From the IMG/VR virus record IMGVR_UViG_2778261533_000003: a stretch of DNA of 14,325 bases. The stretch is one strand, 5' to 3'. This DNA is from a virus (Duplodnaviria > Heunggongvirae > Uroviricota > Caudoviricetes). The position numbers were made by a program. This document shows, in pieces, positions 1 to 3,000 of this stretch. Position 1 is the stretch's first letter. Each line of letters begins with the position of its first letter.

Positions 1-3000
1 CCGGAACAATTTGAAAACAAGAACCTCGCTTAGGCCTGTGTCCATATTACGTGGGTAGGATCAGGTATCATGTAGGGAAAAACTAAAAAGAAGGGGGGGT
101 TATGGGTTGGTCTTCGCTGGTTAGGATAACCATTGGTACATTTCTATTAGCTGGGTTGTCGTTCTCTACATACGCGAAGAACTGCAAGAAAGGTATACCA
201 TGCGGTAATTCGTGCATTGCGGTTGGAAAAACGTGCAGGATTGGATCAAGCACCTCTTCTGCGTATAAAAATTATTCTTACTCTTACCCATCATCTTCTC
301 TTCATAGTTCAATCCCTAACTCCTCTTCACATTCCCCATCAGCGAAGGTTGAGGGAAAAAACACAGCTTCAACTGCGAAAACCTATCTCTGTCAGTACGC
401 TATTGCAGCAGTACAGAATGGTAGAATAGGTTCTTTACGTGTGCTGGGAAGTGCTGAAGTAACGTTGCATGTTGATAGCTTCAAAGCTAACCGTTTAAAC
501 GGTACATACTTGCTTTCGCCAAAGTTGAAACCTGATGGTAAGTTGATGACAGCAGATGATAAAAGCAAAGTGTACGCTTATGATTCGTTGCTGAATAACT
601 TTGCAATCAGTGATCGAGTTGCAAGGACTACTGAGCAATGGGATCATTGCCGTCAAAAATGATTGTTAGGGGGCAACATGGGAAGTGAACTGATTTCTGG
701 TTTAGTTGGTGCCTTGATAGGGGGATTGTTCACCCTGTGGGGTACTCTGATCGATGGACGTAGGCAAGACAGAGCTTCATTTAATGAAGCAAAGGATAAG
801 CAAAAGAGTGTCTTGATTGGAATAAAAGCAGAAGTCGAAACGCTTCTGGAACTTTATAAAGCCAGAATTTACGATTCTCTTGAAAATTATGAAGGTGGTA
901 AACCTTTTGAAAGCATCTTTCCGTTGACTCAAAATTATTTCTCATTCTATGAAAGCAACTCTTTTGCATTAACTTCTGTTAATGAAGAGACAATGAAGGC
1001 AATTGTTATTTGTTATGGCTCAGCAAGGAGTCTGGTTGATACTTTCAGAATGAATAATCAGGTTTTAGAGGACTTAGCTAAACTTCAAACCATATTTCAT
1101 GAAACGCAGAAAGATATCCATCGTTTTAATTTAGAACAGACTTACCATATTGCCACTCAATATGGCGAAGGTTTGAAGCAGATTCATGGCGAGGTTATGT
1201 CACGTATAGCCATCTGTTTAGATAAAATTAATGTTAATTTGGATGAACTTGAAAAGCCTGAGCAGGTAACGCGGTTAAAAACCGTTCTTAGGGCTTTAGC
1301 TTTTATAAAGTGAACTTGTTAAAATTAGGGGCAATATGTCTGGAGTGTTGGCAAGTACAGCGGCGGCTGTAGGTATCATTGACAAAGCTGTAGGTATTGC
1401 AAAGAAGCTCGCTGATGATGGCGGCGAACTTGATAAAGCAACGCTTAAACTTGAGCTTGCTAACCTCATGAGCGAACTTGCAAGTGTGAAGATGGAAGTA
1501 ATCACAACCCAAGCACTTCTTTTTGAGGCTGAACAGAAAAATAAGCAGCTTGAAGAGCAGCTAAAGGATAAGCACACCTTCACTTTCAAAGATGGACTTT
1601 ACTGGAAAGAAGGCGATGAAACAGCCTACTGTCCCAAATGCTTTGAAGTTGATAAGGTGCAAACACACATGGTTTTTTCGCGTGCCGTTGGTCAATACTC
1701 CGCGAGTTGGTATTGCATTAATTGCAGAAACAGCATTTATCCAAAATCCCGTTAAAATCGTTATTCTTTGGCGGAAGTGTCAAATGTTTTTGCATAAGGG
1801 CATTTCCCCTTAGTTACGTAAGTGAACAGATAATTGCTGTTCTGATACGTGCACAGCGTTTTTCCATTCTCCGTCTGTTCTTCCTGTGGGTTGACCATTG
1901 TTATCTGTCCGGCATTCGATAGGACAGGCAATAGCGCCAACGTCAGCACAAATAAGCTTTTAATTTGGATCACCATTCTAAAGAAAACTCCTCTGCTAAA
2001 TCGTCCTGCACATCCTGACCATACCCGATGTAATACATAGTAGAGCGCGGATCTGTCTGTCCCAGGAAATGGGCTATTGTCTCTATAGCTACCCCTGCAT
2101 CAAACATCACACGGCCCCGACTTTTACGTGGCGTATGGCATCCCACATTAGAGAATCCGGCTCTACGTCCCATCTTCCCAAATTCAGTGAATACCGTGTT
2201 ACGGGTTACGGCTTCGCCTTTACTGCGTAATGTGCCAGCACTGAAAATAAAATCTGTAGCTACAGGCATCTTCGTTTGCTCTGCCTTGCGTTGTGCCACC
2301 ACTGACAACATGGCGGGGGTAACTTTTGGCCTTACTACGTTTCCGGTTTTCTCCTGCTTTATCTTCAAATGAGATTGCCCCTCAACATCCTGATATTTTA
2401 GCTTGAGTACGTCAGAGACACGCAACCCGCTTTCATACATAAACACCCATAAGCAATAAAACAGGTTGGTTTTACTATTGCGCTGTAGCTCTGCTGCTAC
2501 TGTTTTTACCTCGTCTACATTCTTGAGGGCTTGGCTAATACCTTTCATCTTTATACTCTCCTTATTCGTTTCAATGAAAGTAGTTTTGATCATAAAATGA
2601 TCATTTTCAATATGTTGCACGATACGTTTTATGGTTGAGAGCACTAAATGATCAAAAATGATTAAAGGGCTATTAAAAGGTGATTAAGACTGATTAAAAG
2701 GTATTAAAGGCGATTAAAACCGATTTAATTTAGGTGCGTTCGTCACCATCGTTGAACACAAAGATCAAGCCTCCCGATCTGATGCAGGCACAAATATGAA
2801 ATATCTTGTTGATTTATAAGTAAATTTATTTTATGCAAACTGTTCACAAATGATTTGTCTTGTCAAGAAATTTATTTTCGGCAGATGAAAAATAGCCAAT
2901 AAATAGCGATAAATGGTCTATATATGCCTGAGTATATAAAGATCAGTAGGTTACAGAATACACTTTGCTAAAGTGTATCGAATCTGGGTTGTATTGCATT

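Follow-up and report, generated by a model that had tools for sequence, protein, structure and literature searches.

An island integrated at a tRNA-Gly gene of E. coli encodes, besides its own integrase, a second and much smaller tyrosine recombinase, raising the question of what such an enzyme does for an element whose integration is already provided for. An initial annotation of the stretch of viral DNA analysed here (14,325 nucleotides of IMG/VR record IMGVR_UViG_2778261533_000003; hereafter the window) had placed it in the size class of the FimB/FimE invertases that drive phase variation. By comparing the locus with its relatives we observe no sign of a phase-variation invertase; a plasmid-style resolvase module is the more likely alternative.

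The island and its boundaries

The island extends for about 13.9 kb, with the tRNA-Gly gene glyU at one end and, at the other, an att core that is the same in sequence as the tRNA 3' end (Table 1). A tRNA scan of the window found none. To test for tandem elements, the interior of the island was searched for another tRNA att core, also with a negative result. The 64-bp terminal inverted repeats on which the small recombinase had been suggested to act do exist, with 1-64 and 14217-14280 being inverted copies over 64 nt (98% identity). However, they are the ends of two inverted IS3 copies outside the island and not the ends of the element: 5417 of 5426 E. coli genomes contain a match to their sequence, which abuts annotated IS3 transposase genes. 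These repeats are substrates of the DDE transposase or of homologous recombination, and not of the small recombinase.

The recombinase gene borders a long non-coding region with origin-like iterons, which are 23-mers in E. coli, five copies of GTGACAAAATGGCAC in Klebsiella and four of GGGACACTATACTGTC in Winslowiella; a gene for a lambda-O-like initiator (weak family matches, E 7e-6 to 4e-3) lies downstream. The glyU islands also carry a capsid-E gene, a tape-measure-like gene and a 2-kb non-coding region rich in iterons and hairpins. We regard the island as phage-satellite-like. A literature search on this island, on DUF6538 and on small catalytic-only recombinases in resolution returned nothing specific.

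Table 1. Coordinates of the features discussed (window numbering)
Feature	Position	Strand	Remarks
IS3 copy end	1-64		outside island; inverted partner at 14217-14280
71-aa ORF	1761-1976	-	signal-peptide-like N-terminus, two conserved Cys; start overlaps recombinase stop
192-aa tyrosine recombinase gene (WP_000676395.1)	1970-2548	-	catalytic domain only; PF00589, AlphaFold model, dN/dS
Shine-Dalgarno AAGGAG	2558-2563	-	9 nt upstream of recombinase ATG; read from sequence
Putative promoter/operator block	2582-2654	-	conserved in E. coli, Klebsiella, Salmonella and locus L007
Putative -10 AAAACT (weak)	2582-2587	-	predicted recombinase promoter
Two TGATCA/GATC sites in 17-nt spacer	2587-2592, 2598-2603	-	putative recombinase promoter
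14-mer TGATCATTTTCAAT, first copy	2598-2611		exact inverted partner at 4377-4390
Putative -35 TTGAAA	2605-2610	-	predicted recombinase promoter
Third TGATCA	2649-2654	-	conserved block upstream of recombinase
GATTAAA-type repeats	2660-2730		about seven, phased 10-11 bp apart
Invariant 18-mer TGTCAAGAAATTTATTTT	2861-2878		alignment A1
Single-copy palindrome ACAGAATACAC-TTTGCTAAA-GTGTATCGAAT	2953-2983		candidate core recombination site
14-mer TGATCATTTTCAAT, second, inverted copy	4377-4390	-	20 nt upstream of main rightward promoter
Main rightward promoter TTGACA-17-TATTGT	4410-4438
Small ORF	9963-10154		helix-turn-helix, AlpA/Xis-like as read by eye; no Pfam match
Island integrase, 406 aa	12122-13342	-	DUF6538, SAM-like and catalytic domains; adjoins attR
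attR core	13428-13449	+	22 nt; identical to tRNA-Gly (glyU) 3' end

A catalytic-domain-only tyrosine recombinase

The reported presence of a tyrosine recombinase of about 192 aa, second to and separate from the island integrase, was borne out. An ORF scan together with the sequence of the window yields a minus-strand ORF ending at 1970, of which the 192-aa form from the ATG at 2548 is the RefSeq call. The protein scores 58.2 bits against Pfam PF00589, above the curated threshold of 27.1, across residues 12-174 of the 192-aa protein (44-206 in the extended ORF of 224 aa), and matches the phrog_216 integrase (E 1e-27). An exhaustive HMMER search recovered 832 representatives, nearly all of them 180-195 aa in length; a word-index protein search returned close relatives only (23 hits). 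A generic RefSeq annotation of the gene already exists.

Loss of catalytic residues on careful alignment had been named, together with a lack of orientation heterogeneity in deep long-read data, as what would refute the invertase proposal. In an alignment of 50 family members R43, K67, H138, R141 and Y173 are all present, in columns that are invariant or nearly so, and the sole departure is Gln164 in place of the second His (or Trp) of the pentad. This column holds His in 42 and Gln in 7 of the 50 members, and a relative with 58% identity (P0013) has His there. An AlphaFold2 model (pLDDT 94.1, pTM 0.89) is predicted to contain the catalytic-domain fold of tyrosine recombinases preceded by a single short N-terminal helix, and its top Foldseek matches in the PDB are lambda Int (residues 75-356), XerA, XerH and Cre (E 6e-9 to 1e-5). 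The N-terminal arm-binding domain is missing, as had been noted, and so is the N-terminal core-binding domain. With a dN/dS of 0.08-0.10, indicative of strong purifying selection, the protein is predicted to be a catalytically competent tyrosine recombinase that consists of the catalytic domain only.

The overlapping small ORF

The recombinase stop and the start of a 71-aa ORF overlap in the sequence ATGGTGA (minus strand of 1970-1976), confirming the two overlapping genes of the initial annotation. The identical 7-nt overlap is found in Klebsiella (L004) and Salmonella (L006), and in Winslowiella (L029) and L007 a homologous small ORF likewise overlaps the recombinase end; the pair thus recurs in Klebsiella, Salmonella and Winslowiella, and the small ORF is tightly co-inherited with the recombinase across at least four genera. 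Since both are under purifying selection (dN/dS of the small ORF 0.2-0.34), they are genuine genes. The N-terminus of the small protein has K6 followed by a hydrophobic stretch from residue 7 to 19 (mean Kyte-Doolittle 2.5) and by SNA|G, with A22-G23 and the two Cys invariant in the alignment, and from this signal-peptide-like segment the protein is predicted to be secreted. It matches phrog_4641 (E 7e-7), and its mature part is 47-50% identical to ORFs in Klebsiella and Citrobacter phages of about 140-150 kb. PADLOC gave no significant match for the recombinase, the small ORF or the cargo genes.

The ORFs overlap across genera, but the translational coupling originally proposed is not obligatory: in UPEC132-type islands (L010) the small ORF is frameshifted and truncated and the recombinase protein is nevertheless identical. 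On the simplest reading the 71-aa protein would be accessory cargo on the recombinase transcript, perhaps a periplasmic exclusion factor, rather than a partner in recombination.

The conserved cis region

The region preceding the recombinase gene contains several conserved blocks (Table 1). The first resembles a promoter/operator, an assignment that we make from its sequence; a consensus promoter scan did not list it. The GATTAAA-type repeats that follow are present in E. coli and Klebsiella and deleted in Salmonella, and could represent bent DNA or accessory binding sites. Further upstream, the palindrome has conserved arms around a 9-nt centre that varies across genera, and in L040 it shows a compensatory change from ATACAC..GTGTAT to ATACAT..ATGTAT; no second copy was found in the window. 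An Rfam scan of the whole window (E<=1) gave one chance-level match only, so no known RNA explains the conserved blocks. Two further readings were rejected: 1) a P1 pac-like role for the three TGATCA hexamers, there being two or three copies only and no P1-type machinery; 2) a small RNA that would start at promoter-like sites (3072-3011) and end at a weak terminator-like sequence (2780-2762), the terminator not being seen by eye in Klebsiella.

The left copy of the 14-mer TGATCATTTTCAAT lies within the putative promoter block, and together with the copy near the main promoter it forms an exact 14-nt inverted pair, 1.76 kb apart, that Klebsiella has too. The pair was not seen by eye in the Winslowiella relative, and an island with a serine recombinase (L003; see below) keeps the right copy without the left. 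These shared sequences might alternatively mark the protein as a recombinase-fold DNA-binding regulator, namely a leftward-transcribed immunity or repressor protein that binds the TGATCA motif of both promoters, for which the SPbeta repressor MrpR/YopR is a precedent. Such a role would fit the divergent transcription of the recombinase and the main operon, the phased repeats upstream and the 14-19-nt motif common to the recombinase promoter and a site 20 nt upstream of the main -35. However, a pure repressor would not need the near-invariant R, K, H, R and Y of the 50 family members, most sister islands retain the right-hand motif although their recombinase is a serine enzyme with intact catalytic residues, and the two promoters are 1.8 kb apart; we consider a regulator improbable.

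A single orientation at all surveyed loci

The same 14-mers bear on the original proposal that the enzyme inverts a nearby promoter segment. A FimB/FimE-like invertase might flip a segment with inverted repeats at its ends, such as the 1.76 kb between the two copies, and thereby switch expression; the inverted junction expected of this flip is TTGATCATAAAATGATCATTTTCAATTTCTTATAAT, composed of TTGATCATAAAATGATCATTTTCAAT and TTCTTATAAT. We surveyed 36 complete E. coli genomes (25 with at least 80% of 1700-4600 and 11 more with the recombinase module), 10 further assemblies and 9 metagenome contigs, approximately 55 independent loci, by BLAST of the window against every fetched locus and by scanning the metagenome contigs for the left-repeat junction, the material being assemblies rather than reads. 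Across these loci no segment near the recombinase or in the island occurs in both orientations: all are colinear, and wherever it was examined the junction that follows the left repeat has its native form. Likewise, no split hit was seen in the 92 genomes that cover at least 80% of the serine recombinase module.

What speaks for an invertase is its identical catalytic-domain-only architecture and size, its end-to-end alignment with FimB/FimE-type models, the exact inverted pair that flanks the non-coding region and is conserved in Klebsiella, and an alternative occupant of the same slot that comes from the resolvase/invertase family and that PHROGs labels 'DNA invertase'. Beyond the uniform orientation, several observations argue against it. 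The NCBIfam models NF007370 and NF007371 give 29.2 and 30.6 bits against cut-offs of 221 and 222, a roughly sevenfold shortfall; the right repeat persists in islands that lack both this recombinase and the left repeat; and the pair was not seen by eye in the Winslowiella relative. Moreover, the putative -35 of the recombinase falls on the left repeat, and inversion would therefore not switch the recombinase promoter. An invertase accordingly appears quite unlikely, and the earlier interpretation, partly supported as a whole, is mostly unsupported on this side.

Two enzyme families in one slot

Other E. coli islands of this family carry in the slot, in the same orientation, a 183-aa serine recombinase with a Resolvase domain and an HTH, which keeps the catalytic YIRVS motif and has its own repeat-rich upstream region. 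The serine module was found in roughly 300 E. coli genomes (in a spread listing) versus 36 for the tyrosine module. It abuts the same backbone position, and all module variants join the backbone at this one point (motif GTTCAAYRAAT, window 3078). The serine enzyme resembles Tn3/gamma-delta resolvase and Gin to about the same degree, and its closest full-length relatives (64-68% identity) lie on E. coli plasmids of 2-6 kb; in the one plasmid inspected, pDETEC86 (1985 bp), the relative is the sole annotated gene. Its occupation by two unrelated enzyme families suggests that the slot serves one common function in recombination.

The tyrosine enzyme has distant full-length relatives (27-35% identity, about 180 aa) on Firmicute plasmids of 8-10 kb and on an Oceanisphaera plasmid; those on pWNCR9 and the Oceanisphaera plasmid adjoin toxin-antitoxin genes, the latter near an RctB-type replication gene. 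Relatives in streptococcal phages are placed between the late activator and the HNH/terminase genes, and those at 34-45% identity from IMG/VR and GTDB (L030, L034-L038) have phage-like, uninformative contexts.

The position of the gene at the border of the conserved backbone and a left arm whose genes vary, with the recombinase protein itself identical, and the common junction of all module variants could also suggest a cargo-exchange enzyme or secondary integrase that captures or swaps left-arm genes in an integron-like manner or moves the left arm as a mini-element. Against this, no repeated att-like sites were seen at the cargo boundaries, the tRNA att core has no further copy within the island, and the breakpoints interrupt genes (that at 1852 is in the small ORF) or coincide with IS elements. 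Integron cargo adjoins the promoter of the integrase gene; here it is found on the 3' side of the recombinase gene, and the integron-integrase model gives 33.6 bits against a cut-off of 265. The module is found only at glyU in E. coli and beside an actS homologue in Salmonella. Cargo exchange is hence very improbable.

A proposed role in resolution or circularisation

Our preferred explanation, which we advance tentatively and as falling a little short of an even chance, is that the recombinase is a res/lox-like module that resolves or circularises the replicating circular form of the island. The island integrase would excise the island, which would then replicate. Each genome copy would have a single cis site, at which the small recombinase would act to reduce dimers, or head-to-tail linear multimers brought in by a capsid, to monomer circles. 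Its site would lie within the 530 bp upstream of the gene, the palindrome being the best candidate. The putative promoter has conserved GATC sites and a 14-mer that recurs in the main promoter region, so expression probably depends on the regulatory state of the island or on replication. Four elements of this proposal are inferences from these patterns: the reaction, the identity of its site, a circular stage of replication and what the small protein does.

This role in resolution is favoured because 1) the active site and predicted fold are intact under strong purifying selection; 2) integration already has a dedicated integrase, an att core and a small ORF read by eye as AlpA/Xis-like; 3) a serine enzyme with small-plasmid relatives occupies the same slot, and the distant tyrosine relatives also lie on small plasmids; 4) the gene borders the iteron region, with the initiator gene downstream; 5) the upstream palindrome occurs once, and its arms are conserved, with one compensatory change, around a variable centre; and 6) the surveyed loci show no inversion. 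On the other side, no product of recombination, whatever its kind, was observed, and the circular replication of the island is itself conjectural. It is equally possible that the palindrome is an operator or an RNA hairpin; with 6-7 bp its arms are short, and its centre, at 9 bp, exceeds the usual overlap region of 6-8 bp. Gln replaces the second catalytic His, the streptococcal-phage relatives lie between late activator and HNH/terminase genes, and the co-inheritance of the small protein is left unexplained by a resolvase. E. coli plasmids often rely on host XerCD, and we know of no characterised satellite (P4, PICIs, PLEs) that needs a resolvase.

If resolution or cyclisation is indeed its function, then some phage-satellite-like islands would have a means of plasmid-style maintenance, which would be new for satellites as currently understood. 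The exchange between tyrosine and serine modules would amount to a natural experiment on functional equivalence, and a compact recombination tool might be made of the enzyme with its short site. Should the protein simply be an accessory recombinase without a known use, the finding would be ordinary. More speculatively, and with rather low credence, the glyU islands might constitute an undescribed phage-satellite family with a swappable tyrosine/serine recombinase slot beside the origin, each enzyme having its own cis site. This slot would be a Cre/lox-like device turning packaged or replicated multimers into monomer circles, and the small periplasmic protein, always co-transcribed, would belong to the same establishment or exclusion programme.

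Comparison with known systems

FimB/FimE, like MrpI, FimX/HbiF and IpuA/B, are also enzymes of about 190-200 aa with the catalytic domain only and separate from any element integrase, and residues 13-174 of the recombinase align with positions 11-172 of the 198 in their models. The small recombinase differs from them in its low model scores, in having Gln for the second His, in the lack of any short segment seen in both orientations, and in its location in a satellite-like island rather than beside a fimbrial operon. The Xer models are similarly distant (XerD 37 bits against a cut-off of 330, XerC 33 against 335, XerA 42.7 against 220). The closest proteins outside Enterobacterales are the phrog_216 relatives of about 180 aa in streptococcal temperate phages and Firmicute plasmids, which align over the full length at 27-30% identity, have the catalytic-only size and are likewise second recombinases of their elements. 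They differ in their hosts and, in the phages, in gene position; a search for an experimental function of these relatives found none.

Cre/loxP resolves and circularises P1, and ResD/rfsF and TnpI/IRS do so for plasmids and transposons. With Cre we propose a likeness as the second tyrosine recombinase of a replicating phage-type element with one site per genome. Expression of P1 cre is Dam-sensitive via GATC sites in its promoter, a parallel to the recombinase promoter rather than a test of it. However, Cre has 343 aa with a core-binding domain, the structural similarity is limited to the catalytic domain (Foldseek TM 0.66-0.71), and no 13-8-13 lox-like site is evident by the recombinase. TnpI and ResD are longer (about 270-285 aa), and sequence-level membership of the recombinase in the TnpI, ResD or Tn3 groups is not shown; its cis layout of three TGATCA sites, GATTAAA repeats and one palindrome also differs from IRS, rfsF and res. 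Nevertheless, it shares with TnpI/IRS of Tn4430, ResD/rfsF of F and Tn3/gamma-delta res a repeat-containing cis region that overlaps the promoter and directly precedes the gene, and the alternative occupant of its slot is itself a small serine recombinase of the Tn3/gamma-delta kind.

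The recombinase gene and its product

The window is E. coli DNA, with 64-13591 matching strain Z1323HEC0016 at 99.9%. The recombinase gene has an AAGGAG motif 9 nt 5' of its ATG, and the protein matches the Pfam model PF00589 over essentially its whole length (58.2 bits; cut-off 27.1). This, together with the ORF coordinates and the ATGGTGA overlap, bears out the initial annotation of a small tyrosine recombinase whose stop overlaps the start of the 71-residue small ORF. An exhaustive HMMER search (E<=1e-3) recovered 832 representative relatives, nearly all of 180-195 residues, and by sequence the protein is assigned to a large, mostly unnamed class of catalytic-domain-only tyrosine recombinases. 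In a 50-member alignment, R43, K67, H138, R141 and Y173 show little or no variation; the loss of catalytic residues, named at the outset as something that would refute the initial reading, is not seen. The sole catalytic departure is Gln164 at the position of the second histidine, a column with histidine in 42 members and glutamine in 7. A confident AlphaFold model (pLDDT 94) can be superposed on lambda Int, XerA, XerH and Cre over their catalytic domains; in comparison with the orthologues from Klebsiella and Salmonella, dN/dS is 0.08-0.10. Both genes are real, and the enzyme is probably active.

Features of the window and of the MA11 island (L003)
Feature	Position	Strand	Remarks
First island gene, 186-aa protein	102-662		signal-peptide-like N-terminus, Cys-rich segment, Ser-rich linker
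Small ORF, 71 aa	1761-1976	minus	start inside recombinase stop codon (ATGGTGA)
Tyrosine recombinase, 192 aa	1970-2548	minus	RefSeq WP_000676395.1, "tyrosine-type recombinase/integrase"
Block 1			promoter block; three TGATCA/GATC sites
Block 2			phased GATTAAA repeats; absent in Salmonella
Block 3			invariant 18-mer
Block 4			single-copy palindrome CAGAATACAC-N9-GTGTATCGAA
Tandem 23-mer GGGGGGTGTCGGTCACGATGACT, x2	3333-3378		
Direct repeat, ~74 nt	3432-3505, 3616-3688		
Tandem 23-mer TTCCTACCTACCCAGGAAATGAG, x2.3	3518-3570		
O-like initiator	4885-5550		weak matches to lambda-O-like initiator families
123-aa ORF	just upstream of major capsid gene		
Major capsid protein	8797-9825		lambda-gpE-type
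Tape-measure-like protein, 613 aa	10173-12014		matches tape-measure PHROGs
Serine recombinase	L003:5213-5764		equivalent to window slot 1970-3077
GTTCTACCATTGTGATCCGCCC	L003:3582-3603		attL-proximal, common to all islands

Orientation of the locus

The enzyme had initially been proposed to be a FimB/FimE-like phase-variation invertase. It has the architecture of these proteins in common, but scores about 30 bits against their models, whose cut-offs are about 220. The region 1700-4600 matched on a single strand in all 25 complete genomes with at least 80% coverage and in 11 more with the module; BLAST with the window detected no inverted segment relative to 11 annotated loci and 10 further assemblies, and the 17 best whole-window matches are all colinear. 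The only notable inverted repeat is the exact 14-mer TGATCATTTTCAAT at 2598-2611, with an inverted copy at 4377-4390, which is kept in Klebsiella; a metagenome scan with its left flank yielded nine contigs, all nine with the native continuation. The left copy overlies the recombinase promoter at its putative -35 and spacer. The right one is found 20 nt upstream of the main promoter and is kept in islands devoid of both this recombinase and the left copy. These observations argue against a recombination site, and the pair reads better as a putative shared regulatory motif. With weak FimB/FimE scores and no orientation heterogeneity at the assembly level among the genomes, loci and metagenome contigs examined, the phase-variation reading fails; as consensus assemblies are blind to low-frequency switching, we retain an invertase as a quite unlikely alternative.

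A slot shared by tyrosine and serine recombinases

In E. coli MA11 and, by a listing of its spread, in some 300 further E. coli genomes, the slot is filled by a 183-aa serine recombinase, which is oriented like the tyrosine enzyme and meets the backbone at the same place, window position 3078 (motif GTTCAAYRAAT). It combines a Resolvase domain, with the YIRVS active-site motif intact, and an HTH, and is about equally similar to the Tn3/gamma-delta resolvase and to Gin. Islands with this enzyme carry different cargo, including a YecR-like lipoprotein, and their own repeat-rich region upstream of the recombinase. The majority of sister islands hold the serine enzyme instead of the tyrosine recombinase.

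E. coli plasmids of 2-6 kb carry the nearest full-length relatives of the serine enzyme (64-68% identity); pDETEC86 (1985 bp), the one plasmid inspected, has no other annotated gene. For the tyrosine enzyme, distant relatives of full length occur on 8-10 kb Firmicute plasmids and an Oceanisphaera plasmid, adjoining toxin-antitoxin genes on pWNCR9 and the Oceanisphaera plasmid, and in the latter lying near an RctB-type replication gene. Others constitute a second recombinase in streptococcal phages, between the late activator and terminase genes. One slot holding two mechanistically unrelated recombinases, their plasmid relatives and the adjoining origin-like iterons fit best with a resolution or cyclisation module. 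Our best explanation, a tentative one, is that the satellite-like island carries a res/lox-like module, in which the recombinase would act as the island's resolution or cyclisation enzyme and the small secreted protein would be cargo on its transcript. The probability left by this and its three rivals attaches to no named reading.

Upstream elements and the non-coding region

Alignment of the 530 bp 5' of the recombinase gene from three genera revealed four conserved blocks (table). The arms of the palindrome are kept while its centre varies, and both arms change together in one metagenome variant (ATACAC..GTGTAT to ATACAT..ATGTAT). We hypothesize that it is the recombinase core site; the pattern would equally suit an operator or a hairpin. 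That the protein is a recombinase-fold regulator appears improbable. The recombinase promoter region (2587-2654) contains three TGATCA hexamers whose GATC sites are conserved, and two of these lie inside the putative spacer between -35 and -10. In the Klebsiella island, a Dam methylase gene of phage type (L004:8495-9184) is inserted in the adjacent non-coding region. Methylation-sensitive expression of the recombinase is possible.

The stretch of about 1.9 kb that separates the recombinase from the main promoter (2650-4520) is AT-rich and ORF-free, with many short GC hairpins. Its 74-nt repeat is present once in L003 and L008, twice in the window and three times in L002, and Klebsiella and Winslowiella have other sequence with clear iterons at this position. 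The stretch, which had no Rfam match, may serve as an origin, encode a structured RNA, or do both. Inside the island, GTTCTACCATTGTGATCCGCCC is an inverted partial copy of the tRNA-Gly 5' half, about 80 nt downstream of the tRNA, and the sense D-arm-like GTTCAAcaaATGGTAGAACG (3078-3097) lies exactly at the junction of the variable recombinase module and the backbone; the 11-mer common to both regions is, alone, within chance expectation.

Distribution, the small ORF and cargo

Of 5426 complete E. coli genomes, 36 encode the identical recombinase, at glyU in every inspected locus, in island backbones that are about 5-8% divergent or mosaic. Klebsiella, Salmonella and Enterobacter have orthologues of 88-91% identity, and Winslowiella a 51% relative; wherever the flank suffices (Klebsiella, Winslowiella and IMG/VR locus L033) the island is of the same type. 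The small ORF accompanies the recombinase, overlapping its end, in Klebsiella, Salmonella, Winslowiella and locus L007. In UPEC132-type E. coli islands it is truncated by a homopolymer frameshift, with one base added to an A run near its start (AAAA to AAAAA; L010:6020-6125), and replaced downstream by different cargo; the recombinase is identical. The coupling is real and old, yet dispensable for keeping the recombinase. That the recombinase is a cargo-exchange integrase seems very improbable. For the mature part of the small protein, relatives of 47-50% identity occur in large phages of Klebsiella and Citrobacter (genomes about 140-150 kb); the protein is thus also present elsewhere, in other phage genomes.

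The C-terminal half of the 186-aa protein matches phage families phrog_2578 and phrog_14768, of unknown function. The cargo at 663-1313 and 1336-1755 resembles a two-gene unit. Its upstream protein varies (216 aa in the window; of DUF4145 type in L009, L015 and L017) and is closely linked to a conserved protein of 139 aa (phrog_1244), which combines a coiled coil with a zinc ribbon at the C-terminus. It had no PADLOC match and may be a defence-type pair.

The glyU island

The island, of about 13.9 kb (64-13449 within the window), is bounded by the 3' end of tRNA-Gly (glyU), where it begins, and at its far end by a 22-nt copy of that tRNA end (13428-13449), with a 406-aa DUF6538 integrase adjoining attR. 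The 64-bp repeats, initially taken for element termini on which the recombinase might act, belong to IS3: the sequence is present in 5417 of 5426 E. coli genomes (median 5 places per genome), and adjoins an annotated IS3-family transposase gene wherever present in the loci examined. Neither their role as termini nor their link to the recombinase stands. Two inverted IS3 copies, same end inward, bracket the window (1-64, 14217-14325); at the left one, attL and the island's initial ~470 bp are removed or displaced, and the right one breaks a GH15 (ygeQ-like) gene beside the ETT2 region.

Kept as a unit in Klebsiella and Winslowiella, and lacking portal, protease and terminase genes, the island by its gene content looks like a phage satellite. 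Literature searches found no paper on it, and the interest of the locus rests mainly on the swappable tyrosine/serine slot and this apparently undescribed island, whose gene content is, to our knowledge, unlike that of the P4-like, PICI, cfPICI or PLE satellites.
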